DNA of 52,429 bases from a virus (Duplodnaviria; Caudoviricetes): the IMG/VR virus record IMGVR_UViG_3300037153_000540, positions 1-52,429 of that record; one strand, given 5' to 3'. The notes beneath the pieces were generated by a model. The model searched no databases, was not told the origin of the DNA, and saw only the letters and a program-made list of their open reading frames with translations. Position 1 is the first letter of the stretch; the number at the start of each line of letters is the position of its first letter. The translations under genes were made by a program, and so were the position numbers. Shown here piece by piece: positions 15,065-35,952 of the stretch.

Positions 15065-15601
15065 ATGATGATCTCCGGTCTGTGCGCATGCGGCTTCGGG
15101 GAGACCACCCCCGTAGCCAGCAAGAACATGTACCGAAAGGGGAAGCTGATCGTCCGGAAGGGCGAGCATTACACCTACGTAGCTGGCCACCGGAAATCGA
15201 CGCCCGTCCCGCCCGAGCTACGGATCGAGGACAAGATTCAGCGCGATCCCGAGACGGGCTGCTGGAACTGGACAGGATCAATCAATCAGGGCTACGGGCG
15301 AATCCGGACCCAAGGTAAGACCGTCAACGCCTATCGGCTCATCTACGAGATGCAGAAGGGCACGGTTCCGGAAGGGCTGGAGCTGGATCACCTGTGCCGC
15401 AATCGCGCCTGCGTGAACCCGGACCACCTGGAGCCGGTGACGCACGCAGAGAACATGCGGCGCGCTGGTCGTCGTGTCCTAACCGGTGCATGTCACCGGG
15501 GACACGAGATGACGCCGGAGAACACCTACGTCTCGCCGAAGGGGCGCAGGAACTGTAACGAATGCAGGCGGATCAATGAGCGGAGGCGAGCTGCCAAGTG
15601 A
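15065..15601 (+). CDS. Free-standing HNH endonuclease
   Basis: GCWNWTG..GYG..ELDHLCRNRACVNPDHLEPVTHAEN; CHRGHEMTPENT..CNEC; GGAGGAG RBS. Confidence 0.92.
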   Translation: MMISGLCACGFGETTPVASKNMYRKGKLIVRKGEHYTYVAGHRKSTPVPPELRIEDKIQRDPETGCWNWTGSINQGYGRIRTQGKTVNAYRLIYEMQKGTVPEGLELDHLCRNRACVNPDHLEPVTHAENMRRAGRRVLTGACHRGHEMTPENTYVSPKGRRNCNECRRINERRRAAK

Positions 15602-16536
15602 TCAGCGATCTTTGTGTTCTTTCGCACCGCCAAGACCCCGACCGGCCGCGCCGCGCCCTCGACGGGCTCTACCTCTGCCACGGCCACCGCGCCGAACTCG
15701 AACGCCTCATCGCCGAACTCCCCGCCCGCTACAACGACCTCGACCGCGCACTCACCCCCACCAGCACCGCCGGCGGCCACAGCCACCCCGGCCTCGACAT
15801 CGACGAACCCGCCGCCGACCTCCGCTCACAAATCCGCTACGACCTCCTCACCTGGTGCACCTACGTCGCCCGCGAACGCGGCCTCACCGGCCCACCCCGC
15901 GACGACCCGTTCACCACCGCGGCATGGCTCACCATCCACGTGGACTGGCTCGCTGCGAACGAATACGCGGCCGTGCACCTGCCGCCGGTCCTACGGGAGC
16001 TGACCGGCCGCACCTACGGCATCACCGACATCCCCGCCCGCCACCTCGACCTCGAAGAGCAATGCCTCACCAACCGCGACGGCCAGCGCTGCGAGGGCCT
16101 CGTGACGCTCGTCGTACGCGGCGACGACTGGACGGCGCACTGCCCCGCCTGCCGCGAACACGCCCGCGCCGAAGGCATCCCGTACGAGCCGCAGGACGCC
16201 ACCCCGTACCTGCGGCTCGCCCGCCGCGGCGAGTGGATCCCCGCCAGCGACGTCATCCACCTCGCCGGCCTGTTCGGCATCGCAGCGTCCGACGACGTGG
16301 TGCGGCAGTGGAAACACCGGCGGAAGATCGTGGGTCGTCTCACCGACGAGGGTGTGCGGTACGACCTGCGTTCCGTGCAGCGGTACCTCGTGCAGCGGAA
16401 GACCGAACGAGAGAGGATCACCGCTGCTCCGCGTCAACTACGGGCCGAAGAGCGCACAGGTCCCCATCGACGCCAGAGGCCAGTGATCACGATCCAGTTG
16501 CGCGCAGGTCACACGGGGTGTCACACTCAGTCGTGA
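15598..16536 (+). CDS. Zn-binding protein with C-terminal HTH; probable late-gene regulator
   Basis: LYLCHGH, C..C pairs, C-terminal DVVRQWKHRRKI..YDLRSV; position just before the packaging module. Confidence 0.6.
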   Translation: MISDLCVLSHRQDPDRPRRALDGLYLCHGHRAELERLIAELPARYNDLDRALTPTSTAGGHSHPGLDIDEPAADLRSQIRYDLLTWCTYVARERGLTGPPRDDPFTTAAWLTIHVDWLAANEYAAVHLPPVLRELTGRTYGITDIPARHLDLEEQCLTNRDGQRCEGLVTLVVRGDDWTAHCPACREHARAEGIPYEPQDATPYLRLARRGEWIPASDVIHLAGLFGIAASDDVVRQWKHRRKIVGRLTDEGVRYDLRSVQRYLVQRKTERERITAAPRQLRAEERTGPHRRQRPVITIQLRAGHTGCHTQS

Positions 16537-16601
16537 TGGTGGCAGAGCCATCACAACAGCCCGGCCAACGCGCCGGGCTCCTGCGTTCCCGGGGGTGCAC
16601 G

Positions 16602-16904
16602 ATGCCCGGCGGATGGGAAGGCTCCGACCGCAGCGACCGGCTCCCACCAAACTGGCGAACCGAGATCCGGCCCGCCATCCTCCAGCGCGACGGCTACCGC
16701 TGCCAGATCCGCTGGGATGACGGCTGTGAAGGCGCCGCCACCGAAGTCGACCACATCCGAGCGGGCGATGATCATTCGTTCGCGAACCTGCAGAGTGCCT
16801 GCGCCTGGTGTCATCGCCAGAAGACGTATGCAGACAGGCAAGGGATGCGACGGTACTGGTCCGCCAAACGCCAACCTGAACGGCACCCCGGCCTCCAGAC
16901 CTGA
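16602..16904 (+). CDS. Terminase-associated HNH protein (HK97 gp74-like)
   Basis: RPAILQRDGYRCQ..CEGAATEVDHI..DHSFANLQSACAWCHRQKT; upstream of terminase. Confidence 0.88.
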   Translation: MPGGWEGSDRSDRLPPNWRTEIRPAILQRDGYRCQIRWDDGCEGAATEVDHIRAGDDHSFANLQSACAWCHRQKTYADRQGMRRYWSAKRQPERHPGLQT

Positions 16905-16994: not shown

Positions 16995-17732
16995 ATGAAG
17001 AGCTGCGACCACTGCGGCGCTCCCTTCAAGCCGTACCGACCCACCACCCGCTATTGCGGACCGACCTGCCGCAGCCGGGCCTACGGCAAGCGCCGCACAG
17101 CAGATGGCAGGCATGCCGCGTATCGCGCGACCCGTGCCGAGGAAATCCGCGCGCTCAACGCACGCGCACGAATCGAACGGTTCTGTGTGGTCTGCGGATC
17201 AAGCTGGCGCACTCGCAGGGCCGACGCCAAGTACTGCTCACAGGCGTGCTACAGCCAGGACGTGCAGGCCGGTAACGTCACGGTTGGACGACCCAAGAAG
17301 CCAGCACAGTCGAAGCCTGAGCGACGGGCTGCACTGCGCGAGTTGTTCGAGCGGGAGCGCTACGACGAGGCGCTTCAAAGGATCATGGCCCGGACCAAGT
17401 TGCTCAGCTCGGGATGCCGAGTAATCAAGGGCAAAGAGGACGAGCCATACCCGCAGATCTACTGGGCGAAGAACACGACCCGTGGTGCACACCGCCTGGT
17501 CCTTTGGGCCAAGGTCGGCGGCACGATCGACGGATGGCACGCACACCACCGGTGCGCCAACCCGGTATGTGTCGAGCCCGACCACCTGGTGCCTGCGACC
17601 GCTGCTGAGAACTCGGCTGAGATGTTGGCGCGTCGAACGTACGAGGCCGAGATCGAAGCCCTGAGGGCAGCACTGGCGGAGCTTGCTCCGGCACATCCGC
17701 TGCTTCGACGGCACCTCGCGGCCGTCGCCTGA
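16995..17732 (+). CDS. HNH endonuclease with two N-terminal Zn-ribbon repeats
   Basis: CDHCG..YCGPTC, CVVCG..YCSQAC, AHR..HAHHRCANPVCVEPDHL..AAEN. Confidence 0.85.
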   Translation: MKSCDHCGAPFKPYRPTTRYCGPTCRSRAYGKRRTADGRHAAYRATRAEEIRALNARARIERFCVVCGSSWRTRRADAKYCSQACYSQDVQAGNVTVGRPKKPAQSKPERRAALRELFERERYDEALQRIMARTKLLSSGCRVIKGKEDEPYPQIYWAKNTTRGAHRLVLWAKVGGTIDGWHAHHRCANPVCVEPDHLVPATAAENSAEMLARRTYEAEIEALRAALAELAPAHPLLRRHLAAVA

Positions 17733-18341: not shown

Positions 18342-20021
18342 GTGCCGCGCACTCTGGTGCGGGCGCCGGCGCACGATCGGCACCGGTCGCTCGGATGGCT
18401 GGGTGTGGCGTGGATGGAGTTCTTCTGCCGTCACGGTCCCGGCGACGTGCAGGGCGACGAGGTACACCACGGCGACGAGGTCACGGGCTTCATCGTCGAC
18501 TGCTACGCCCTCGATGAGCACGGGCGGCTGCTTTACGATTCGGCGTTCCTGTCCCGGCCGAAGGGCTGTGACAAGTCGGGGCTCGCCAGCCGGTTCGTGC
18601 TGTTCGAGGCGCTCGGGCCGTGCCGGTTCGCAGGGTTCGCCAAGGGCGGCGAGGTCTACGAGGACCCGTGGGGTCTCGGTTTCCGGTACGTGTACGAGCC
18701 GGGCGAGCCGATGGGCCGGCACGTCACCGTCCCGTACATCCGCTGCATGGCCACCGAGGAGGGCCAGACCGGGAACGTCTACGACGCGGTCTACCTGAAC
18801 CTCACCGACGAGGACTTCCCGCTTTCGGCGATCCTCGGCCTGGACGCGGGCCTGACGCGGATCAACCTGCCGGGCGGCGGGGAGATCAACCCGTCGACGG
18901 CGAGCTCGGCGGCGAAGGACGGCGGCAAGGAGACGTTCGTCGTATTCGATGAGACGCACCTGTACAACCAGCCTGAGCTGCGGCGGATGTACAACACGGT
19001 CACTCGGAACCTGCGGAAGCGCAAGAAGATCGCGGGCACCTGGTTCCTGGAGACGACGACGATGTTCGCGGCCGGGGAGGACTCGGTCGCGGAGAAGACG
19101 TACAAGTTGGCCGAGCAGATCGAGGAAGGCAAGACCCGCCGGTCGCGTCTGCTGTACGACCACCGGTGGGGTGAGTGCGAGGACCTGTCCGCCGAAGAGC
19201 AGCTGCGCGCCGCGATCCTCGAGGCCTTCGGTGAGGCGATCGAGTGGAACGACATCGACGGGATCGTTGATGAGTTCTACGACACGCGTAAGGACCCGGC
19301 CGACAGCCGCAGGTACTTCCTGAACGCGGCTGGCTCCGCGGTCGACGCGTGGCTCGCGCAGTACGAGTGGGCGGGCCGCGCCGACGTGACGAAGGTCGTC
19401 GCGGACGGCGACATGGTCACGCTCGGGTTCGATGGTTCCCGGAAGCGTTCGGACGGTGTGACGGACGCGACGGCGCTGATCGGCTGCCGGGTGTCCGACG
19501 GGCACCTGTTTGAGCTCGGTGTCTGGGAGCAGCCGAAGGGCCCGGCCGGGCTCAACTGGCAGGTTCCCGTGGTTGAGGTGCTCGCCGCGGTCGACAACGC
19601 CTTCGAGCGGTTCAACGTCGTGGGGATGTATGCGGACCCGGCGAAGTGGGAGTCGCACGTCATCGGCTGGGAGGCCAAGTACGGCGGCCGGCTGAAGGTG
19701 AAGGCGACGCGGGATCATCCGATCCAGTGGTGGATGACGGGCGGCCGCGCGACGCTGATCGTCCGAGCGACGCTGGCGCTGCACACGGCGATCGTTGAGG
19801 GTGAGATGACCCATGACGGGTCGTACGCGCTGACCCGGCACATGCTGAACGCCCGGCGCAGGGTGAGCCGCATGGGCATCCAGATCGCGAAGGATCACCC
19901 CGACTCGGCGAACAAGATCGACGCCGCGGTGGCGTCGGTTCTGGCGTGGGAGGCCCGCGCGGACGCGATCGCGAAGGGCGTGCTCGCGGAGGACGCCGAG
20001 ATGTTCGGTGGGACGTTCTGA
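18342..20021 (+). CDS. Terminase large subunit
   Basis: SRPKGCDKS Walker-A-like, FVVFDETH Walker B, LGFDGS nuclease, KIDAAVA. Confidence 0.95.
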   Translation: MPRTLVRAPAHDRHRSLGWLGVAWMEFFCRHGPGDVQGDEVHHGDEVTGFIVDCYALDEHGRLLYDSAFLSRPKGCDKSGLASRFVLFEALGPCRFAGFAKGGEVYEDPWGLGFRYVYEPGEPMGRHVTVPYIRCMATEEGQTGNVYDAVYLNLTDEDFPLSAILGLDAGLTRINLPGGGEINPSTASSAAKDGGKETFVVFDETHLYNQPELRRMYNTVTRNLRKRKKIAGTWFLETTTMFAAGEDSVAEKTYKLAEQIEEGKTRRSRLLYDHRWGECEDLSAEEQLRAAILEAFGEAIEWNDIDGIVDEFYDTRKDPADSRRYFLNAAGSAVDAWLAQYEWAGRADVTKVVADGDMVTLGFDGSRKRSDGVTDATALIGCRVSDGHLFELGVWEQPKGPAGLNWQVPVVEVLAAVDNAFERFNVVGMYADPAKWESHVIGWEAKYGGRLKVKATRDHPIQWWMTGGRATLIVRATLALHTAIVEGEMTHDGSYALTRHMLNARRRVSRMGIQIAKDHPDSANKIDAAVASVLAWEARADAIAKGVLAEDAEMFGGTF

Positions 20022-21482: not shown

Positions 21483-23246
21483 ATGAGCCTCGACGAACAG
21501 GCGGCGCTGATCGTGGCGTTCAACACCGCCGAGAAGCGGGTCCGTGCGCATCTGGTCGCGTACGTGCTGGGCTTGTTCGGTGGCCTCGGCTCGTGGCGGG
21601 ACCGCGACAAGGCACGGTTCGCCGCCCAGGTGACGCCGGTCGTGGCCGGTGCACAGCGTCAGGTCGCTTCGCTGATGGACGCGTACCTGGCGCGGCTGCT
21701 GTCGGACATGCGCGGCCGCCCTGCCCGCCCGGCCGGGGCCATCCCGGACGTGAGCCGGCTGCGTGGCGTCGACCCGGCCATCGTGTATGGCCGGCCGTTC
21801 GACACCGTGTGGGCTGAGCTCGCTGAAGGCCGTGACTTCGAGCAGGCGCTGGCGGCCGGGCGGCTGCGGGCCGAGCAGATCACCAAGACGGATCTGCAGC
21901 TCGCGGAGACGCACACGGCACGCGCGCTGCTCGAGGACGACCGCGACGTGGTCGGGTACCGGCGTGTGCTGACCGGCACGACATCGTGTGGGCTGTGTGT
22001 GGTTGCCTCGACGCAGCGGTACCACCGCGGTGAGCTGCTGCCGATCCACCCAGGCTGCGTACCCGAAGGGACGCCGGTCGCCGCGCGCGATGTCCTAGCC
22101 GTCACGCGCCGGAAGTATGCCGGAGAACTCTCCGTCATCCGTACGACCTCGGGCGATGAGGTAACCGTCACCGCGAACCACCCGGTACTCACCGACCAGG
22201 GATGGATCCCTGGTCACGTCGTTCGCGAAGGCGATTACGTAGTCCGCAGCGCGGGCGGTCATCGGATGGTTGGTCGTGGCCCACAGGAAAGCGATCGCCC
22301 AGTTTTGGCCGAGGATGTATGGCGTTCGGCGAGTGTGGCGGGGCTTGTTCAGGTGCCACTCGCCGCCGAGGATTTCCACGGCGACGGAGCCGATGGCGAA
22401 GTCGAGATTGTACGGACCGACCGCCACCTCGCGCCGGTAGGGGATGTCTCGTTCGGTCAGCCACTCGGCGAATCGCTGCTCGTGGACGGACATGGCCGGG
22501 GGCGCCTTCTCTCGCCCGGCGGCTACGCGGCACCGTTCATCCCAGGTGGCCTTACGGCCTCGCGAAGCATCATGGGCAGCGCGGGCCTGAGCGGCGCGCT
22601 CCTCGGAGGTCATCTGTCCAGCGCGCACGAGGCCCGCTTGGGAGCGGTCGCGACGGGGAACCTTGCGGTCCTGGAGAAGGCGGGAGATGGCGTCTCGCTG
22701 GACTCCGTACTTCTCGGCCAGCGCGAGTTCGGACAGGCCGTCGAGGTAGCCCTGAACGACCTCATCGGCAGGCAGCTCGCGCCACGTCCCACGTCGGCGC
22801 GTTTCGATCCCCCGGCGGCGGAGTTCACGGGCGAGGGTCGTCGCGCCTACGCCGTGCTTGGTCGCCGCTTGCTTGATCGACTGGCAGGACAGGTAGAGCT
22901 GGACCGCGTTGTCGAGGTTCGCCGGGTCGACTACTCGGGGCATGTCTACAACCTCCATACGGCCGAGGGATGGTATTCGGCCAACAGTCACATCATATCT
23001 AACTGTGACTGCGGTATCGCGCCGATCCTCGGCGACACCGACCCAGGCCACGTCATCAACGCCCCGTTGCTGGAGGACGTGCACGACCGCATCCAAGAGC
23101 GGTTCGGTGTCTCGGACCGCAGCGGGCGCAAGCCGATCGACTACCGGGATCTGCTCGTTACGCATCAGCACGGCGAGATCGGGCCAGTGATCGCCGTGAG
23201 GGGGCAAAGCTGGACCGGCCCGGCAGACGTCAGCCGTAACGCTTGA
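21483..23246 (+). CDS. MuF-like minor head/capsid maturation protein containing an intein
   Basis: GYRRVLTG..SCGLCVVASTQRYH..LLPIHPG|intein|CDCGIAPI; follows portal. Confidence 0.88.
   Translation: MSLDEQAALIVAFNTAEKRVRAHLVAYVLGLFGGLGSWRDRDKARFAAQVTPVVAGAQRQVASLMDAYLARLLSDMRGRPARPAGAIPDVSRLRGVDPAIVYGRPFDTVWAELAEGRDFEQALAAGRLRAEQITKTDLQLAETHTARALLEDDRDVVGYRRVLTGTTSCGLCVVASTQRYHRGELLPIHPGCVPEGTPVAARDVLAVTRRKYAGELSVIRTTSGDEVTVTANHPVLTDQGWIPGHVVREGDYVVRSAGGHRMVGRGPQESDRPVLAEDVWRSASVAGLVQVPLAAEDFHGDGADGEVEIVRTDRHLAPVGDVSFGQPLGESLLVDGHGRGRLLSPGGYAAPFIPGGLTASRSIMGSAGLSGALLGGHLSSAHEARLGAVATGNLAVLEKAGDGVSLDSVLLGQREFGQAVEVALNDLIGRQLAPRPTSARFDPPAAEFTGEGRRAYAVLGRRLLDRLAGQVELDRVVEVRRVDYSGHVYNLHTAEGWYSANSHIISNCDCGIAPILGDTDPGHVINAPLLEDVHDRIQERFGVSDRSGRKPIDYRDLLVTHQHGEIGPVIAVRGQSWTGPADVSRNA
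22056..23003 (+). mobile_element. Intein (316 aa) in the HPG/CDC motif
   Basis: Cys1 CVPEGTPV, block B VTANHPVLT, block F VYNLHT, terminal SN, +1 Cys; removal restores IHPGCDC. Confidence 0.9.
22095..22943 (-). CDS. HTH + DUF559/Vsr-like endonuclease nested antisense inside the intein
   Basis: Two HTH-like repeats (SIKQAATKHGVGATTLAREL; SELALAEKYGVQRDAISRLL); SVHEQRFAEWL..REVAVGPYNLDFAI..VAVEILGGEWH; GGAGG 8 nt before ATG. Confidence 0.8.
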   Translation of the reverse strand: MPRVVDPANLDNAVQLYLSCQSIKQAATKHGVGATTLARELRRRGIETRRRGTWRELPADEVVQGYLDGLSELALAEKYGVQRDAISRLLQDRKVPRRDRSQAGLVRAGQMTSEERAAQARAAHDASRGRKATWDERCRVAAGREKAPPAMSVHEQRFAEWLTERDIPYRREVAVGPYNLDFAIGSVAVEILGGEWHLNKPRHTRRTPYILGQNWAIAFLWATTNHPMTARAADYVIAFANDVTRDPSLVGEYRVVRGDGYLIARGRTDDGEFSGILPARDG

Positions 23247-28419: not shown

Positions 28420-29073
28420 ATGACCGGAGTCGCATTCGACTCTCTGGCGCAGAAGGACAGCACGCTGATCCGGCGGGCGATCGACGGCAGCGTGTTCATG
28501 GCGCCGTTCAGCGCCGACGCGATCACGTCGCTGACCGACACCGACAAGCTGCTCAAGGCACTGCCGTCCGGCTACGAGGACGTCGGTCTGCTCGACGACG
28601 CCGGCGTCACGATGCCGCGGTCGGTGGACACGGCCAACGTCACCAGCTACGGCCGTGTCGAGCCGTCCAGGACCGACGTCACGAAGGACACCAAAACGAT
28701 CAAGCTCGTCGCGCAGGAGACCAAGGCGCTGACGATCGGCCTGTACACCGGCGCGGACATGTCCGGCATCACCGCGGACGCCACGTCGGGCGAGGTGCAG
28801 ATCGCCATCCCGGCGCGCCCGACGATCCGCTTTTATCGGTGCCTGGTGCTCGCCGTGGACCTGTCCGACGACGGGGAGATCTACGACGGCCGGTTCTACC
28901 CGCGTGTGAGCGTCACCGACTACGACGACGAGAAGCACCAGAGTTCCGGCGATGACCCGACGACCCGCGGCGTCACGCTCACGGCGTACGTCGATGACGT
29001 GCTGGGCTACTCCATGAAGGAGCTGCACGGCGGTCAGGGCTGGGCGGTCCTCAACAGCGCCATGGGGTTCTGA
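28420..29073 (+). CDS. Major tail protein
   Basis: Synteny; LPSGYEDVGLLDDAG..SYGRVEPSRTD. Confidence 0.85.
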   Translation: MTGVAFDSLAQKDSTLIRRAIDGSVFMAPFSADAITSLTDTDKLLKALPSGYEDVGLLDDAGVTMPRSVDTANVTSYGRVEPSRTDVTKDTKTIKLVAQETKALTIGLYTGADMSGITADATSGEVQIAIPARPTIRFYRCLVLAVDLSDDGEIYDGRFYPRVSVTDYDDEKHQSSGDDPTTRGVTLTAYVDDVLGYSMKELHGGQGWAVLNSAMGF

Positions 29074-29076
29074 GCC

Positions 29077-29403
29077 ATGGCACGCACGGTCCTTTCCGTC
29101 ACGAAGGCCGTACGCGGCGGTGTCGCATCACCGACCGAGGCGAACGGCGACAGCACCAACGGCCACGTCGTCACCAATACCGGCAAGACGATCATCACCG
29201 TCCGGAACGCGGACACCAACCCGCACTCCGTCACGTTCATCACGCCCGGCACGGTCGACGGGCAGGCGGTAGGCGATCGCGTGGTCAGCATTCCGGCCAG
29301 CAGCAGCCGCGACTTCGGTGGCCTGCCGACCAGCGTGTACGGCTCGCAGATGCAGATCGATGTGGATTCCTCGCAGCTGAAGCTCGTCGCCCGCGAGCCC
29401 TGA
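29077..29403 (+). CDS. Small beta-rich structural protein
   Basis: ORF in tail operon; GC3 bias. Confidence 0.7.
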   Translation: MARTVLSVTKAVRGGVASPTEANGDSTNGHVVTNTGKTIITVRNADTNPHSVTFITPGTVDGQAVGDRVVSIPASSSRDFGGLPTSVYGSQMQIDVDSSQLKLVAREP

Positions 29404-29483
29404 GACGCCGGCCGGCCGGGTTCCCTGGGCGGGTGGCCCGGCCGGCGCGGCCAGCATCACCCGCCGCCGTATGGAGGAAGTCC

Positions 29484-29672
29484 GTGCCCGATTACCCGGT
29501 GTACGAGAAGAACGGCAAGACGCAGATCGCCGCGACGCCGCAGCGCGAGATCGAGCTGCAGTTCGACGGCTGGCAGAAGCAGAGCGGTCCGGCCACACCG
29601 GCCAGCGATGACACCGGCTCGGCGGGCGCCGCCGCGTCCAGCCAGGCCAAGCAGTCCAAGTCCAGCAAGTAG
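29484..29672 (+). CDS. Small hypothetical protein
   Basis: GGAGG RBS; MPDYPVYEKNGK..LQFDGW. Confidence 0.65.
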   Translation: MPDYPVYEKNGKTQIAATPQREIELQFDGWQKQSGPATPASDDTGSAGAAASSQAKQSKSSK

Positions 29673-29688
29673 CAGGAGGAACCCGCCC

Positions 29689-30027
29689 ATGAGCAACACC
29701 CGCAACACCCGGCCGCGCGCGGCGGCCAAACCGAAGGTCGCGATCGACATGGACAAGCTGGAGCGCGAGGGCGCTCCGGAGGAGCTGTTCGTGGCGCGCG
29801 TCGGCGGCAAGGAGTTCACCTTCGCCGACCCGATGGAGACCGAGTGGCAGGACCTGGTGGTGATCTCCCCCCAGGACACCATCCTGTTCCTGAAGGCCCT
29901 GCTCGGTGAGCAGTACACCGACTTCGCGAAGCACCGCATGCCGTTCTGGAAGCTCGGCCAGCTCGTCCGCGCGGTCCAGGAGTACTACGGCATGATCCCG
30001 GAAGGCAGCGCCTCGCCGAATGCATAA
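29689..30027 (+). CDS. Tail assembly chaperone (gpG-like)
   Basis: AGGAGG RBS; between MTP and TMP; DMDKLERE..FTFADP..W..FWKLGQLV. Confidence 0.8.
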   Translation: MSNTRNTRPRAAAKPKVAIDMDKLEREGAPEELFVARVGGKEFTFADPMETEWQDLVVISPQDTILFLKALLGEQYTDFAKHRMPFWKLGQLVRAVQEYYGMIPEGSASPNA

Positions 30028-30059
30028 AATGAAGTGAAGCTTTCGGCTATCATTTATCG

Positions 30060-30608
30060 GTGGCCAGAACCGTTATCTGTAAAGACTGCCGGGGATCATT
30101 CGAAGCTGGACCTACCGGAGTCTTGCCCACGCGATGCCAGCCATGCCGTAAAACATGGAGGGCCGCACAGCAGCGGGCCGATCAAGGCCGGAGAAACGAG
30201 CAGCAGAGGCGCAGGAGAAAGGCGGCGGCAGAGGCCAGGGAGGCGCTGCCCAGCCCCTCCCTCATATGCGAGATGTGCGGTGTGACGTTCAAGCGGAGAA
30301 GCCGGAAGGGCCCTCCGGCGAAGCGGTGCTATCTCTGCAACTGCTTCGTGATCGCTGTCGGTCAGGCCCGCCGCCATCATCTTGCCGATGGCGGAAGCTT
30401 CACGGGCATCGAGGTCTTCGAGCGCGACGAGTACCGGTGCTACCTGTGCGGTGGTCTGTGCACGGGCGACTACCCAGCCCCGATGTCCCCATCCATGGAC
30501 CATGTGAAGCCCATTTCAAGGGGCGGCCACCATACGCTTGAGAATGTCAAGACTGCGCACCTGCTCTGCAACATGAGCAAGGGCATCAATGAACTTGGAT
30601 CGGCTTGA
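30060..30608 (+). CDS. HNH endonuclease inserted in the tail chaperone locus
   Basis: VFERDEYRCYLCG..SMDHVKPISRGGHHTLENVKTAHLLCN; Zn ribbons; lower GC. Confidence 0.92.
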   Translation: MARTVICKDCRGSFEAGPTGVLPTRCQPCRKTWRAAQQRADQGRRNEQQRRRRKAAAEAREALPSPSLICEMCGVTFKRRSRKGPPAKRCYLCNCFVIAVGQARRHHLADGGSFTGIEVFERDEYRCYLCGGLCTGDYPAPMSPSMDHVKPISRGGHHTLENVKTAHLLCNMSKGINELGSA

Positions 30609-31263
30609 CAACGATGGCTCGCCATTCACGTTCGTTCTACATGGCAGGTCCCGGACAACAAGAAACCCTAACGAGCTTCTCTGGCAAGAAATTCTAGCGG
30701 CACTCTCAAATCCATCGGTCTTTCTTGGGCTGGTAGTCGAAGATTCCCAGCTGAGAATCGTCCGATGGAAGCTGCAGGCGCTGGTTGATGCCTGGCGAGA
30801 TCACCACGATCTTCCCGGAACCCGAGAATGCCATCGGCTGATCTACCTCCTCGAACGCTACGGCGATGCCATTGAGCGAGACCTGTTCGACCGGAGCGGG
30901 GATCTCACCGATCTGTGGACATCGCGCCGGTGGCGGCTGCTGCTGAACGTCATCGACGGTCTGCCGTCGAACAGCCACTACGTGGCGGCGCTCGCCGACG
31001 ATGACGAGCTGGCCGAGAACTCTCCGCCGCCGAAGGCTCGGCCGCCGAGGCTGACCGAGTTCAGCCCGGAAGCCGCGGCGATCATCGACCGGCTCGGGGA
31101 CGTGATCACCGCGGTCATCGCCGCGGCCGGCGGAACACCACCGAGCATCGAACCGTACCCGCGCCCGGTCACCGCGGCGGAACGCATGAAGCAACGGAGC
31201 CGCTGGCGCGCCCACGAGGACCTCGTCGCCCGCCTGCTCCCGCACAAGAGACGAACCAGCTGA
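30589..31263 (+). CDS. In-frame gpG'-gpT tail assembly chaperone fusion
   Basis: N-terminal ~78 aa align with the upstream gpG; remainder LLERYGDAIERDL..RRWRLLLNVIDGLP..YVAAL..PYPRP is gpT-like. Confidence 0.75.
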   Translation: MNLDRLDNDGSPFTFVLHGRSRTTRNPNELLWQEILAALSNPSVFLGLVVEDSQLRIVRWKLQALVDAWRDHHDLPGTRECHRLIYLLERYGDAIERDLFDRSGDLTDLWTSRRWRLLLNVIDGLPSNSHYVAALADDDELAENSPPPKARPPRLTEFSPEAAAIIDRLGDVITAVIAAAGGTPPSIEPYPRPVTAAERMKQRSRWRAHEDLVARLLPHKRRTS

Positions 31264-31287
31264 GTGCCGGGGCGGGGGTGATCTTTC

Positions 31288-34200
31288 ATGCCCGCCCAGG
31301 CAGGAAGCGCGTACATCCCGATCAGGCCCGACCTGACGGGGTTCCACAAGACGATCCAGAAGGAGCTTCAGGCCGCGCTAGGGCCGATCGTCGCGCGGAT
31401 CGCGAAGCAGATCGGCGTCGACCTCAAGGACGGCATCGGGCAGGGCCTCGGTGACCCGGTGTCCGGGCCGCTGGAGGAGTCGACCCGCAAGCAGCGGTCG
31501 AAGGCACCCAAGGATGGCGAGCAGATCGGCGGCGCGTTCGCCGGCGCGTTCAAGCGCCGCGTCACGGACGCGCTGAAGTCGTTGCCGAAGGCGGAGATCA
31601 CCGCCGACTCCTCCGAAGCGGACCGCAAGGTCGCCGAGCTCCGCACCCGCATGGCGGAGCTGTCGAAGAAGACCATCGGCATCGACATCGATGCCGCCGC
31701 GGCACTCGCCGAGCTGTCCGCGATCAAATCGGCGCTCGCCGACGTCGGCCAGAACGCCTCGATCGACGTACGCGCCGACACCGCGGCGGCGATCCGGCAG
31801 CTGGATACCGTTCAGGCCACCGTCGACAAGCTCGCCACCGATACCGCCACCGTCGAGGTCGACGCCGACACGGCCGGCGCCGATGCCGCGCTGGCCCTCA
31901 CGGACGCGGAGGTCAAGCGGCTCGACGGCCGAAAGGCCAGCATCGACGTCGATGTGTCCGGCGCGATGTCGGGCCTGGGACGCCTCGCGGGGATGGTCGG
32001 CGGGCTCGCCCCGCTGTTCCTCGGCCTCGGCGCCGCGGGCGTGGCAGGTATCGGCGCTCTCGCCGCCCCGGCCGCTGCCGGCGCCGCCGGGTTCGGTGCG
32101 CTGGCCCTGGTCGCCGTACCGGCCATCACGCGCATCAAGACCGCGCTCGATGCGCAGAACCAGGCCCAGCAGAACAGCGCGGCTACCGCCGTACAGGCGC
32201 AGCAGCGTGCGCTCGCGGAGGCGGGTGCGCAGCAGCAGCTCGCCGCGGCCGTACGGAACGCCGCGGTCGCGCACGCCCAGGCTGTTGATCAGGTTCGTAC
32301 GGCCGAGCAGCAGCTCGCCGCAGCGCAGCAGTCCGCCGTGAACGCGCAGCGTGCATTGACGCAGGCGCGTCTCGACTCGCGACGGGCGTTGCAGGACATG
32401 AAGAACCAGATCATCGACGTCGGTCTGTCCGTGCAGCAGTCCCGCCTCGACGTCGATAGCGCACGCGCGAGCTTGGATCAGATGCGCGCGGCGGCGACGG
32501 CGGCCGCGCAGAACCTCGCGCAGGCCAAGACGGCGCTGGCACAGGCGCAGGCCGCGCAGGCGGCGCTCGGCCCGGGCGGCGGTGACGCGGCGCGCACGCA
32601 GGCGGCGGCGAACGTCGCGGCGGCGCAGGCCGCGGTGAAGGCCGCGCAGCAGCAGAAGGCCGCGCGGGACGCCGACGCGAAGTCCGCGCAGATCGCCTAC
32701 CAGCAGGCCGTGCAGCGTCTCAAGGAGCAGCAGCTTCAGCTCCAGCGGCTGCAGCAGGACGAACGCGCCGCGGCCAAGGCCGGCGTCGACGGCTCCAATC
32801 AGGTCCTCGCCGCCCGGCAGCGCCTGGCGGCGGCGAATCTGCAGATCACCAACAGCGAACGGGCTCTGGCCGCTGCGCGCGCGAATGTCGCGCGGGTCGA
32901 CGCGAACTCCCGTGATCAGATCGCCTCGGCGCAGCGCGGCGTGACGCAGGCGTCGCTGCAGGGCGCGGCCGCGAACTCCGCGCTCACGCAGTCGGTGGCG
33001 GCGCTGTCCCCGGCCGCGCGCGGGCTGATGGGCGCCTGGCAGCGGCTCTCCGCGGCGTTCACGACCTGGCAGACGTCCCTGGAGCCGACGGTCCTGCCGG
33101 TGCTGGCGCGTGGCCTGGGGCTCGTGCAGGCCGTGCTGCCGCTTCTGACGCCGCTCGTACGGGGCGCCGCCGCGGCGATGGACACGCTGATCTCAGCAGT
33201 GAAGACAGCGCTGGCGAGCCCGGCTTGGCAGACGTTCTTCGCCACTCTCGGCACCCTGGTCAAGAGCACCTTGATTACGCTCGGGACCGTCTTGATCCAG
33301 GTGGCTACCGCCGTCGTGCGGTTCGCGAACGCGTTCGCTCCGTTCGCTCCGATCGCGCTTGGCTTCATCACCCAGCTCGGAAATCTGTTCTCGATGATCT
33401 TCGGGCAGCTCGGTGCGATGGCGCCTGTCCTCGCGGCGTTCATCGGTGTCCTCGGGCAGCTGTTTCAGGCTGTCGGACCGCTACTCGTTTCGGCGCTGCA
33501 GGGCCTGGCGCCGGTGCTGGCCGGACTGGCGCCGATCTTCGGTGTGGTGATCCGGTCTCTTCAGCCGGTGATCGCCGCGCTGATCGCCGGGCTCCGCCCC
33601 ATCCTCGCCGCCCTGGTGCCCGTCATCGGCCTTGTCATCGGCGCGCTTGGGCAGATCCTCGGCGCCTTGGCGCCGATCCTGCCGGTCCTCGGCCAGTTCA
33701 TCGCGTCGCTGATCACCGGCCTGATGCCGATCCTGCGGCCGATCATCAAGGTGATCACCCAGGTCGCTGTCCAGCTCGCCGGCGCGCTGATCACCGCGCT
33801 GAAGGCGGCTCTGCCGAGCGTCCAGCAGATCGTCATCGCGATCGCCAGTCTCCTGCCTGCGCTGCTGCCGCTGATCCCGCTGTGGGTCAAGTTCGAGCTC
33901 GCGTTGCTCCCGCTGATCCCGACTCTGCTGCGCCTGGTGGCGCTGCTGGTGCAGATCCTGGTGCCGGTGCTGCGCATCGTGATCACGGTGCTGGTCGCGG
34001 TCGCGGGCACGATCCTGAAGATCCTTCTGCCGGTGTTTCGGTTCATGGTGGCGGCCATCACCGCGGCCATCAATTCCGTGCACAAGGTCTTCAAGTGGCT
34101 GTACGACGTGCTGATCGGGCACAGCATCATCCCGGACCTTGTGCACGGCATCCAGCACTGGCTCGGGATCCTCGGTGCCGCGTTCCGTGCGGTGTACACC

Positions 34201-35952
34201 ACCGTGATCCGGCCGGTCGTGCACAGCATCGGCACGGTGATCGACACGGTCTGGAAGGGGACGATCAGGCCGGCGTTCAACGCGATCAAGTCCGCGCTCA
34301 GCTCGGTCGGGCACGCCTTCGGGGTGGCGAGTAGCGCGATCAAGGCTGCTTGGAGCAAGGTCAAGGGCTACGTCGCCTCGCCGGTCCGGTTCTTCGTCGA
34401 GACGGTGTACGACAAGGGTGTCGTCGGCCTGTGGAACAAGGTCATGGGCTGGCTGCACCTCGGCAAGACGGTCGGCACCCTCGCACCGATCCACGTGCCG
34501 GGACTCGCATCGGGCGGTGAGCTGTCTGCCGCTCAGCCGATCTCACCGATGCGCACGAACGGTCCGATGGCGATCGTCGGCGAAGGCAACCCGGCGTACC
34601 CCGAGTACGTCATCCCCACCGACCCAAAGCACCGCGGCCGCGCGGCCGCGCTGTGGGCCGCGGCCGGCGGGGACCTGCAGATGCTGGCTTCCGGTGGTGT
34701 GCTCGGCAGCATCCTGAAGGGCGTTAAGGGAGTCGCCGGGAAGGTCTTCGACCTGGGGAAGGACGCGCTCGGCCTGCTCGCCGACCCGAAGGGCGTCTGG
34801 GACCGGCTCGCGAAGCCGATCCTCGACAAGGTCAAGGGAAGCGGGGCTCTCGGCGCCGGCGACTGGGGTAAGGCGATCGCGGCGGTGCCGCCGAAGCTGC
34901 TCGGCGGGCTGTGGTCGGCTGCCAAGCCGATCATCGACGCTTTCAAGTCGGCGTTCGGTGGTGGCGGCTCGGCGATGGTCGAGCTGGCAAAGACCCAGAT
35001 CGGGTACCGCGAGGGCGCGGGGAACTCCAACAAGTACAGCAACGAGCTCGGCCGTCCACCGGAGGAGTGGTGCGCCGACTTCATCGACTGGCTGGCCCTC
35101 AAGACCAACAACCGCAGTGCCGTTCCGTGGACGGCCAGCGCGCCGGGCATGGCGAACGCATTCGGCTCTCGCTACCAGCCGGGTACCGCTGGCGTTACCC
35201 CTGGCGACATCCTGTTCTTCGGCGGCTCCAAGGGCACGATCTACCACGTCGGCCTGGCGAGCGGTCCGGCGGCAGGTGGTTCCGTGCCGACGATCGCCGG
35301 CAACAGCAGCAACATGGTCAGGGCGTACCGCGGCACTGGGATCGCCGGGTTCGCGCATCCGGCCTACCCCAACCCCGGCAGCATCGGCTCCGCGCCGGGC
35401 AGCCTGATTCACGCCTCTCCGCCCGTGGCGCAGGCGTGGGCTCGGCAGAACCTGAAGAACTACCACTGGTCCCAGAGCCAGTTCGCACCGCTGCTGAGTC
35501 TGTGGAACCGGGAGAGCGGCTGGCGCTGGTCGGCCCGAAACCCGAGCAGCGGCGCGTACGGCATCCCGCAGGCGCTGCCCGGGTCGAAGATGGCGGCGGT
35601 CGGCAGGGACTGGCGAGACAACGCCGGCACCCAGATCAAGTGGGGCCTGGGCTACATCAACAGCCGGTACGGCTCCCCCGGGAACGCCTGGGCGCACAGC
35701 CAGCGCACCGGCTGGTACGACGACGGTGGCTACCTCCAGCCCGGCCTGACGCTGGCCTGGAACGCGACCCGGAAGCCAGAACCGGTGTTCTCCCACGACC
35801 AGTGGAACACCCTCGCCGCCGCCACCCGCGGCGGTGACGGCGCGACGTACGAGACGACGTACAACCTGCACCACCGCGATATCACGCTCCCGCAGCTGCA
35901 GGCGCTGCAGCGGCAGCAGGAAGCCCGGCAGCGTGTGGGGAGGCCGCGGTAG
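31288..35952 (+). CDS. Tape measure protein with C-terminal CHAP-like and lytic transglycosylase-like domains
   Basis: 1554 aa, Ala/Gln coiled coil plus amphipathic repeats; WCADF..HVGL..IAGNS; RESGW..ARNPSSGAYGIPQALP. Confidence 0.93.
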   Translation: MPAQAGSAYIPIRPDLTGFHKTIQKELQAALGPIVARIAKQIGVDLKDGIGQGLGDPVSGPLEESTRKQRSKAPKDGEQIGGAFAGAFKRRVTDALKSLPKAEITADSSEADRKVAELRTRMAELSKKTIGIDIDAAAALAELSAIKSALADVGQNASIDVRADTAAAIRQLDTVQATVDKLATDTATVEVDADTAGADAALALTDAEVKRLDGRKASIDVDVSGAMSGLGRLAGMVGGLAPLFLGLGAAGVAGIGALAAPAAAGAAGFGALALVAVPAITRIKTALDAQNQAQQNSAATAVQAQQRALAEAGAQQQLAAAVRNAAVAHAQAVDQVRTAEQQLAAAQQSAVNAQRALTQARLDSRRALQDMKNQIIDVGLSVQQSRLDVDSARASLDQMRAAATAAAQNLAQAKTALAQAQAAQAALGPGGGDAARTQAAANVAAAQAAVKAAQQQKAARDADAKSAQIAYQQAVQRLKEQQLQLQRLQQDERAAAKAGVDGSNQVLAARQRLAAANLQITNSERALAAARANVARVDANSRDQIASAQRGVTQASLQGAAANSALTQSVAALSPAARGLMGAWQRLSAAFTTWQTSLEPTVLPVLARGLGLVQAVLPLLTPLVRGAAAAMDTLISAVKTALASPAWQTFFATLGTLVKSTLITLGTVLIQVATAVVRFANAFAPFAPIALGFITQLGNLFSMIFGQLGAMAPVLAAFIGVLGQLFQAVGPLLVSALQGLAPVLAGLAPIFGVVIRSLQPVIAALIAGLRPILAALVPVIGLVIGALGQILGALAPILPVLGQFIASLITGLMPILRPIIKVITQVAVQLAGALITALKAALPSVQQIVIAIASLLPALLPLIPLWVKFELALLPLIPTLLRLVALLVQILVPVLRIVITVLVAVAGTILKILLPVFRFMVAAITAAINSVHKVFKWLYDVLIGHSIIPDLVHGIQHWLGILGAAFRAVYTTVIRPVVHSIGTVIDTVWKGTIRPAFNAIKSALSSVGHAFGVASSAIKAAWSKVKGYVASPVRFFVETVYDKGVVGLWNKVMGWLHLGKTVGTLAPIHVPGLASGGELSAAQPISPMRTNGPMAIVGEGNPAYPEYVIPTDPKHRGRAAALWAAAGGDLQMLASGGVLGSILKGVKGVAGKVFDLGKDALGLLADPKGVWDRLAKPILDKVKGSGALGAGDWGKAIAAVPPKLLGGLWSAAKPIIDAFKSAFGGGGSAMVELAKTQIGYREGAGNSNKYSNELGRPPEEWCADFIDWLALKTNNRSAVPWTASAPGMANAFGSRYQPGTAGVTPGDILFFGGSKGTIYHVGLASGPAAGGSVPTIAGNSSNMVRAYRGTGIAGFAHPAYPNPGSIGSAPGSLIHASPPVAQAWARQNLKNYHWSQSQFAPLLSLWNRESGWRWSARNPSSGAYGIPQALPGSKMAAVGRDWRDNAGTQIKWGLGYINSRYGSPGNAWAHSQRTGWYDDGGYLQPGLTLAWNATRKPEPVFSHDQWNTLAAATRGGDGATYETTYNLHHRDITLPQLQALQRQQEARQRVGRPR

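Follow-up and report, generated by a model that had tools for sequence, protein, structure and literature searches.

Probable conversion of a tail assembly chaperone frameshift locus into a two-gene locus by an HNH-bearing insert in a soil phage

Few recoding events in tailed phages are as conserved as the frameshift that joins the tail assembly chaperone genes G and T, and the ratio of G to GT is held to be critical. The reference case is lambda, in which gpG and gpGT are made through a conserved −1 frameshift (Levin 1993; Xu, Hendrix & Duda 2004, 2013, cited in PMC5009743). This article concerns the corresponding locus in the IMG/VR virus record IMGVR_UViG_3300037153_000540, a stretch of 52,429 nucleotides (nt) that was analyzed whole and is called the window below. 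It comes from a soil phage with ~69% GC and a structural module of actinophage type. In the window, gpG is followed by an HNH endonuclease gene and then by a third open reading frame (ORF), ORF3, in which a second G-like head is fused to T. We propose that an ordinary G/T frameshift locus was probably converted by an HNH-bearing insert into a two-gene layout, gpG plus a fused long form referred to here as G'T, most likely via intronless homing.

Homing endonuclease genes have been described at sites where essential function is kept despite the insertion. Examples are T4 mobA with the gene 60 bypass element, and mobE in the nrdA gene of Aeh1 (PMC2988022 and PMC5009743, citing Bonocora 2011 and Friedrich 2007). 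An HNH gene near tail chaperone genes is also known: in the cluster O mycobacteriophages Corndog, Firecracker, and YungJamal, it lies between the chaperone genes and the tape measure gene tmp (PMC4351075).

Some chaperone pairs do without a frameshift. Such pairs reportedly occur in T4-like phages, going by the title of a 2022 paper by Vladimirov, Gautam & Davidson. They are also described for some Microbacterium phages of cluster EA (PMC7302621). An HNH insert at a G/T slip site that brings a T-fused chaperone paralogue is not described in the consulted portions of the literature searched, supplements aside.

The insert and the closed frame

A preliminary description of this DNA, made from the letters alone, placed a low-GC HNH cassette at the frameshift position of the tail chaperones. 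Gene order and empty sites in relatives bear this out. On the + strand, where all features given here lie, gpG (29689..30027), the HNH gene (30060..30608), and ORF3 (30589..31263) follow one another, and an insert of 826 nt occupies 30018..30843 (boundaries ±1). The first empty site is on X2, a Logan contig of 9,489 nt whose source soil metagenome is independent and belongs to another study. X2 covers 29403-30016 and 30843-31400 as consecutive positions, joining 30016 directly to 30843, so that exactly 826 nt are skipped with zero letters between. The second is on L019, a JGI contig of 1,473 nt that runs collinear with the window, starting at the major tail protein, and has an uninterrupted G/T overlap. 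Its alignment to the window stops after 30017 and resumes at 30844, with a nucleotide identity of 77% over 28792-30017 and 85% over 30934-31094. Presence of the insert varies among close relatives, with precise edges in both comparisons, as for a free-standing homing endonuclease gene. HNH-free relatives with a slippery G/T overlap, a search for which the preliminary description had proposed as a check, exist, L019 among them; gpG and T are arranged in two frames, with no HNH gene between them, at 16 of 16 related loci read (L002-L005, L007, L009-L012, L014, L015, and L018-L022).

The insertion point lies between GCCTCGCC and TACCTCCT, 14 nt past the slip heptamer C_CCG_GAA (29997..30003). It falls inside a near-invariant block, GCCTCG[CT]CTACCTCCT (compared in L019, L021, L005, and L007), which is read in two frames at once, as the C-terminus of gpG and as the N-terminus of T. 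The heptamer is identical in L019, and close relatives have G_GGG_GAA at the same place. GGGGGAA has been proposed as a tail-gene slip site in corynephage phi16 (PMC5506516).

Frame 0 of the window reads YYGMIPEGSASPNA and then a stop; the C-terminus of gpG in L019 reads YYGMTPEELASPTS and then a stop. The final two codons of gpG and its TAA (30019-30027) come from the insert, and gpG keeps its length because the insert supplies them. The stretch 30018-30059, at 36% GC, also supplies a stop in the other frame. After the slip, the −1 frame (29997..30032) consists of seven resident T-start codons, PGRQRLA, joined to four insert codons, ECIK, and then the TGA at 30030-30032. It is closed after 11 codons, in agreement with the earlier remark that it stops almost at once. 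In L019 the −1 frame is open into T (PGRARLAYLLRRYGEAIERD; PGRARLA then YLLRRYGEAIERD). A −1 shift from gpG does not lead into an open T frame in the window, while the T frame is open in 14 of 14 relatives examined. Removing 30018-30843 in silico would restore an open frame, PGRQRLA joined to YLLERYGDAIERD. The retained heptamer is now vestigial.

The composition of the insert is foreign. Its GC content is 58%, compared with 69% for the window, and drops to 51-56% across 30500-30850. GC content at third codon positions (GC3) is 0.96 in gpG, 0.72 in the HNH gene, 0.565 in the G-like head of ORF3, 0.77 in the first 30 codons of T, 0.87 in the remainder of T, and 0.90 in the tape-measure gene. 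The low GC of the insert is real. Divergence from L019 is also raised at the T start, in the first ~90 nt past the insert (30844..30932): identity per 30 nt is 73, 53, and 63%, compared with 83-93% beyond, in a single comparison and in a region that may simply be variable. Together with the lower GC3, this fits a possible co-conversion tract.

No terminal inverted repeats or long flanking direct repeats were found at 30018/30843, unlike an insertion sequence or transposon, and no terminator-like site was found in 29300-31500. Near the ends of the insert stands an imperfect direct repeat, GAATGCAT (30018-30025) and GAATGCCAT (30826-30834), which may be what is left of the T start in an earlier host or may be due to chance. 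Its reading as a target-site duplication, GAATGC(C)AT at 30018-25 and 30826-34, was dropped because an imperfect match of 6-8 nt is expected by chance and because the empty sites fix the edges elsewhere.

ORF3, the fused family, and the HNH gene

ORF3 encodes 224 amino acids (aa), as does the source's own gene call, P0001. Its residues 50-217 match positions 81-262 of 270 in phrog_2624, a tail assembly chaperone family whose profile is of GT length (expectation value, E, 6e-25). Residues 1-85 (30589..30843) form the head, G', a gpG paralogue without the N-terminal extension, and residues 86-224 (30844..31263) form the T domain. The C-terminus of G' (...HHDLPGTRECHRLI) runs uninterrupted into resident-type T at a junction set at 30843/30844 (Y86), close to the ~30840 first estimated for the start of T. 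The T domain is 67% identical to the T of L021, a prophage of Actinoallomurus purpureus and the closest cellular relative of the locus. By tblastn, ORF3 matches 22 isolated-phage records, in each case the T frame only, under paired "tail assembly chaperone" features.

What are the grounds for calling G' a second gpG? First, the two segments align significantly by BLASTP, with 21 of 84 positions identical (25%) between gpG residues 19-102 and ORF3 residues 1-75 (E 8e-7 for a single comparison). Second, phmmer with the 85 aa of G' as the only query returns 34 proteins (E<=1e-3, 1.84 billion representatives searched); most are gpG proteins of 100-177 aa that stand alone and carry the N-terminal extension. 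Third, in the tree described below, the six fused proteins form one clade. By these sequence comparisons, G' is a gpG homologue, with a likeness beyond chance, and the preliminary claim that ORF3 opens with a diverged, low-GC copy of gpG in frame with T stands. The two chaperones of the window do not share an identical N-terminal G: G' and gpG agree at 25% of 84 aligned positions. Since the extra chaperone head delivered by the insert is continuous and in frame with T, the tail-binding part, a long form no longer needs a frameshift. The octamer TCCCGGAA recurs inside ORF3 (30813..30820; CCC GGA = P76 G77). It is the same octamer as at the resident slip site, and it is read in the post-slip frame, as would be expected if G'T descends from a frameshift locus and was fused via loss of one base at its slip site.

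Structure prediction, which had been proposed as a further check, is consistent with a complete long chaperone. An AlphaFold2 model of ORF3, built on a 53-row alignment, has a mean predicted local distance difference test score (pLDDT) of 90.4. A Foldseek search of the viral models in BFVD returned 16 matches at E<=1e-3, all of them actinophage chaperones of GT length, with 159-279 columns aligned. The matches are full-length against frameshift-joined GT, for example that of Arthrobacter phage Elesar (E 3.8e-10, the best) and that of Gordonia phage GAL1 (template-modeling score, TM, 0.65). A Foldseek search of the PDB gave nothing at E<=0.001. The model of ORF3 thus looks like a whole GT chaperone. 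A complex prediction of gpG with G', made without controls, scored 0.27 against a mark of 0.32 and weighs neither way.

ORF3 belongs to a conserved family of fused proteins. There are five further single-ORF fusions of 235-254 aa: P0011, P0035, P0039, P0042, and P0048. In the last four, the match to G' starts at residue 1-4 (17 in P0035) and is followed by a T domain; P0011 has 243 aa, with 98% coverage. All six proteins, ORF3 included, open with an LD.L[DE] motif, have no N-terminal extension, and have the linker H[HY]DLPxxxExxRL in common. Their frames stay open at identities of 25-40% (G part) and 29-49% (T part). As automatic single-ORF gene calls, from four sources, they do not represent annotated frameshift joins. 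In a tree of 48 rows (quick search, P0012 left out, with Shimodaira-Hasegawa-like approximate likelihood-ratio test support, SH-aLRT, and no bootstrap), the six form a single clade (SH-aLRT 92-93), and the resident-type gpG proteins form a separate one (91-93). A closer relative, P0002, is 82% identical to ORF3 (165 aa as called), and in it the C-terminus of G' is likewise in frame with T.

The fused form was not found in IMG/VR, the genome collection, or the isolated phages. Against the phage collection, tblastn with P0039 gave T-part matches only (30 records), and both blastn with 29400-31320 and tblastn with gpG gave zero matches. Searches of viral contigs for related loci with gpG, HNH, G', and P0035 did not find a second copy of the arrangement, and a word-based search for homologous proteins with only G' as query gave no candidate with enough words in common.

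Two other observations concern G heads. P0012, a single-ORF fusion of 236 aa on an 8,611-nt Logan contig, has another type of G head, like those of L003 and L004; hard-wired fusions may have arisen more than once. In addition, a second gpG-like gene lies ~300-600 nt downstream of T, past a conserved ORF of ~93 aa, in the related viral contigs L002 (4843-5160), L009 (4588-4974), and L014 (4588-4953), and the copies of L009 and L014 form their own clade in the tree (SH-aLRT 100). Duplication of the chaperone head therefore also occurs without a nuclease.

The HNH gene (182 aa) is intact in its HNH motif region. Residues 127-175 match profile positions 1-45 of 47 of PF01844 (30.2 bits), above the Pfam gathering threshold (21.4), and the protein matches phrog_8660 (E 3.5e-17). 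Its start is a GTG without a Shine-Dalgarno sequence (SD), and its frame is the resident −1 frame, 27 nt past the TGA of that frame. Read-through from gpG into the HNH gene, or a fusion of the two, was considered and is ruled out by this in-frame TGA and nine more codons between. Relatives P0017-P0019 are 51-61% identical; a search of genome contigs with P0019 found only distant HNH genes, in Acidobacteria and others. The window has further HNH-type genes at 15576-16904 and 16995-17732, directly upstream of the large terminase gene (18342-20021). They have only the core motif in common with the HNH gene of the insert (BLASTP E 0.001 and 0.26) and may be associated with packaging. With these two beside the terminase, the HNH gene of the insert is an extra, accessory one.

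The short chaperone gene encodes 112 aa, is preceded by an AGGAGG SD, is 75% identical to gpG of L019, and has a weak match to the tail assembly chaperone family phrog_5010 (E 4.3e-4). The position of the locus is that of a G/GT pair, flanked by the major tail protein gene upstream (28420..29073; phrog_476, E 1.5e-55; PF25681) and downstream by an ORF of 1554 aa (31288..35952), which is placed as the tape measure gene by position and size only. Two small conserved ORFs lie between the major tail protein gene and the chaperones. An ORF of 79 aa (29433-29672), which precedes gpG and follows the genes of the tail-tube region, matches no family and is kept in L019 (67 aa) and L021 (69 aa). Farther upstream, the structural module runs from the two HNH-type genes through large terminase, portal, a protease-head fusion, and major head protein to major tail protein. 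The fusion is an ORF of 587 aa (21483-23246) whose residues 4-225 match a head maturation protease family and whose residues 207-399 match a head protein family; it looks like a protease-scaffold or head-protein fusion.

Arrival of the insert and competing explanations

How might such a locus have arisen? In the proposed scheme, the ancestor had gpG with a −1 slip site and, overlapping it, the T frame. A segment of 826 nt from a lower-GC relative would have been copied into the doubly coding block just past the slip site, most likely by double-strand-break repair begun by the segment's own HNH endonuclease, with co-conversion. The segment would end gpG, close the old −1 frame, and deliver a 5'-truncated gpG paralogue that reads straight on, in the post-slip frame, into the start of T. 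Repair that copies HNH from a donor with the order G-HNH-G'T must copy G' too, because G' has no usable homology in the recipient; a frameshift locus would therefore become a two-gene locus. Edges, composition, an intact nuclease gene, and a conserved essential site all fit the spread of a free-standing homing endonuclease gene through break repair accompanied by co-conversion, as described for the T4 seg and mob genes (PMC2988022).

Expression of the converted locus would differ from that of its ancestor. The short chaperone would come from gpG, with its strong SD, and the long chaperone from G'T, at ORF3's own ATG, which overlaps the 3' end of the HNH gene by 20 nt behind a weak AAGGG SD. 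HNH would be translated by re-initiation after the gpG stop or the −1 stop, and G'T by coupling to HNH; the sequence context fits the coupling that the preliminary description had put forward as the control of the G:GT ratio. A weak SD and coupling to a poorly initiated gene would keep G'T scarce relative to gpG, and such an excess of gpG would agree with the G:GT ratio of ~30:1 reported for lambda (PMC5009743). Slippage at the retained heptamer would now give only gpG with a dead-end tail of 10 residues. We infer that the insert arrived by homing, that G'T functions alongside the gpG and tape measure protein of this phage, and that translational coupling controls the levels and ratio of the two chaperones.

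A more far-reaching version can be put forward tentatively, at rather less than even chances: HNH together with G' and the start of T may be a self-contained mobile cassette that homes into the block after the slip sites of actinophage tail-chaperone loci, a block that is highly conserved because it codes in two frames. If this is true, the element is a "rescue" cassette carrying a pre-fused chaperone head, such that the essential long form survives the insertion. It would turn programmed-frameshift loci into two-gene loci wherever it lands. Alongside self-splicing and gene splitting, it would be the third means by which a homing endonuclease does no harm to the essential gene it occupies. Instead of being an intrinsic part of such a mobile unit, G' may also be a piece of a donor's own long-form gene that was co-converted.

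Several observations weigh against conversion by homing. Among the DNA read, the HNH plus G'T arrangement occurs only in the window and in X1, a Logan contig of 23,800 nt that probably has the same source sample and contains the whole stretch with 0 differences. Over 39-64% of the query, the nearest relatives of the HNH protein in isolated phages are 28-47% identical; they are encoded at genome ends, in places of packaging-type HNH genes and not at homing-type sites. The 28,078-nt contig of P0002 is not the source of any of the five HNH relatives found; the G'T gene may therefore exist without this HNH. Finally, with G' only 25% identical to the resident gpG, the two may not co-assemble on the tape measure protein of this phage.

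The genome-end position of the HNH relatives in isolated phages also speaks for the strongest competing explanation, in which the functional outcome is the same but the HNH gene has no role: an old two-gene lineage, gpG plus G'T with an HNH gene between them by chance, would have passed its block to this phage by mosaic recombination at the conserved G end and T start. We consider this unlikely, at perhaps one chance in several, even with its further support. The fused G'T family, with six members, is old and has diverged to identities of 25-49%, none of the five HNH relatives is on a contig as long as those of P0002, P0035, P0039, P0042, P0048, and P0011, and separately expressed, frameshift-free chaperone ORFs are described for some Microbacterium cluster EA phages (PMC7302621). 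On the other side stand the base-exact edges inside an 18-nt, doubly coding conserved block and the intactness of the HNH gene. Moreover, P0018 (an HNH protein, 61% identical) and P0009 (58% identical, in the T part) are each encoded on a Logan contig of 1,135 nt, possibly one and the same, a hint of a second HNH-T neighborhood.

Alternatively, the locus may simply be broken, GT synthesis having been destroyed and ORF3 being incompatible with the resident gpG and tape measure protein, in a phage that is defective or helper-dependent. Observation in one sample only, the low identity of G' to gpG, and the 70% completeness assigned to the record by CheckV would be compatible with this, but ORF3 is open over 224 codons with a high-confidence model, and the structural genes around the locus are intact. 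In addition, six diverged proteins keep the fused architecture, as does P0002 at 82% identity, and conservation of this kind implies selection after fusion. A broken locus is therefore improbable.

Far less probable is that the insert is spliced out as a self-splicing intron, or bypassed in translation, with GT still made by a normal frameshift. There are precedents, in that HNH-bearing introns occur in capsid and tail genes of actinophages (PMC3706429) and a homing endonuclease has been connected with the bypass in T4 gene 60 (PMC5009743). In the window, however, splicing, which the preliminary description had named as the outcome that would overturn its reading, finds no recognizable intron RNA, with zero Rfam matches at E<=1 in 29300-31500. 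Excision would leave the second coding region of the insert, G', and its in-frame joining to T without a purpose. The family of fused proteins is conserved, and the stop codon of gpG is itself derived from the insert. Last, an assembly chimera in which an HNH-G' block was mis-joined to the phage would produce an abrupt composition change at both edges, as seen, but can be practically dismissed: the IMG/VR record and X1 agree, frames are intact at both edges (two further codons complete gpG, and G' passes into T without a change of frame), and P0002 has the same G'-T junction on another contig.

Comparison with known systems

Conversion by an HNH-bearing insert, the explanation we prefer, makes this locus one half of a natural before-and-after pair: near-identical phages have either the frameshift or a two-gene layout hard-wired in its place, in which the vestigial slip site persists. 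The pair lets one ask whether the frameshift itself is important or only the ratio it sets, and how much divergence is tolerated in the G part of the long form. One can also ask whether regions of overlapping frames are preferred homing targets through their double constraint. There is a practical implication as well, since annotation pipelines that seek a slip site would mis-annotate the locus.

Like G/GT of lambda, the locus lies between the major tail and tape measure proteins and has a short G and a long, T-bearing form; the slip heptamer and the start of the T frame are recognizable, and close relatives frameshift. Unlike lambda, it has a −1 frame that is shut after 11 codons, and its long form is a separate gene with a G paralogue that is 25% identical. 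Like the frameshift-free pairs of cluster EA and T4-like phages, its short and long chaperones come from separately expressed ORFs. Those pairs, as far as the available accounts of them go, differ from the window in showing no link to a nuclease cassette, no empty site in close relatives, and no vestigial slip site.

The HNH gene invites two further comparisons. As in cluster O, an HNH insertion in the chaperone/tape-measure region of an actinophage is polymorphic among close relatives. In cluster O, unlike in the window, the insert follows the chaperone genes and disturbs the start of tmp, the frameshift is kept, and no chaperone paralogue is described. As with T4 mobA and gene 60, and with Aeh1 mobE and nrdA, a free-standing HNH-type gene sits in a critical coding region together with sequence that saves function. 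The means is different: the window supplies a duplicate N-terminal domain fused to the downstream part, in place of a subunit split or a ribosomal bypass. The insert of the window, set beside those of T4 and Aeh1, abolishes a recoding event instead of creating one.

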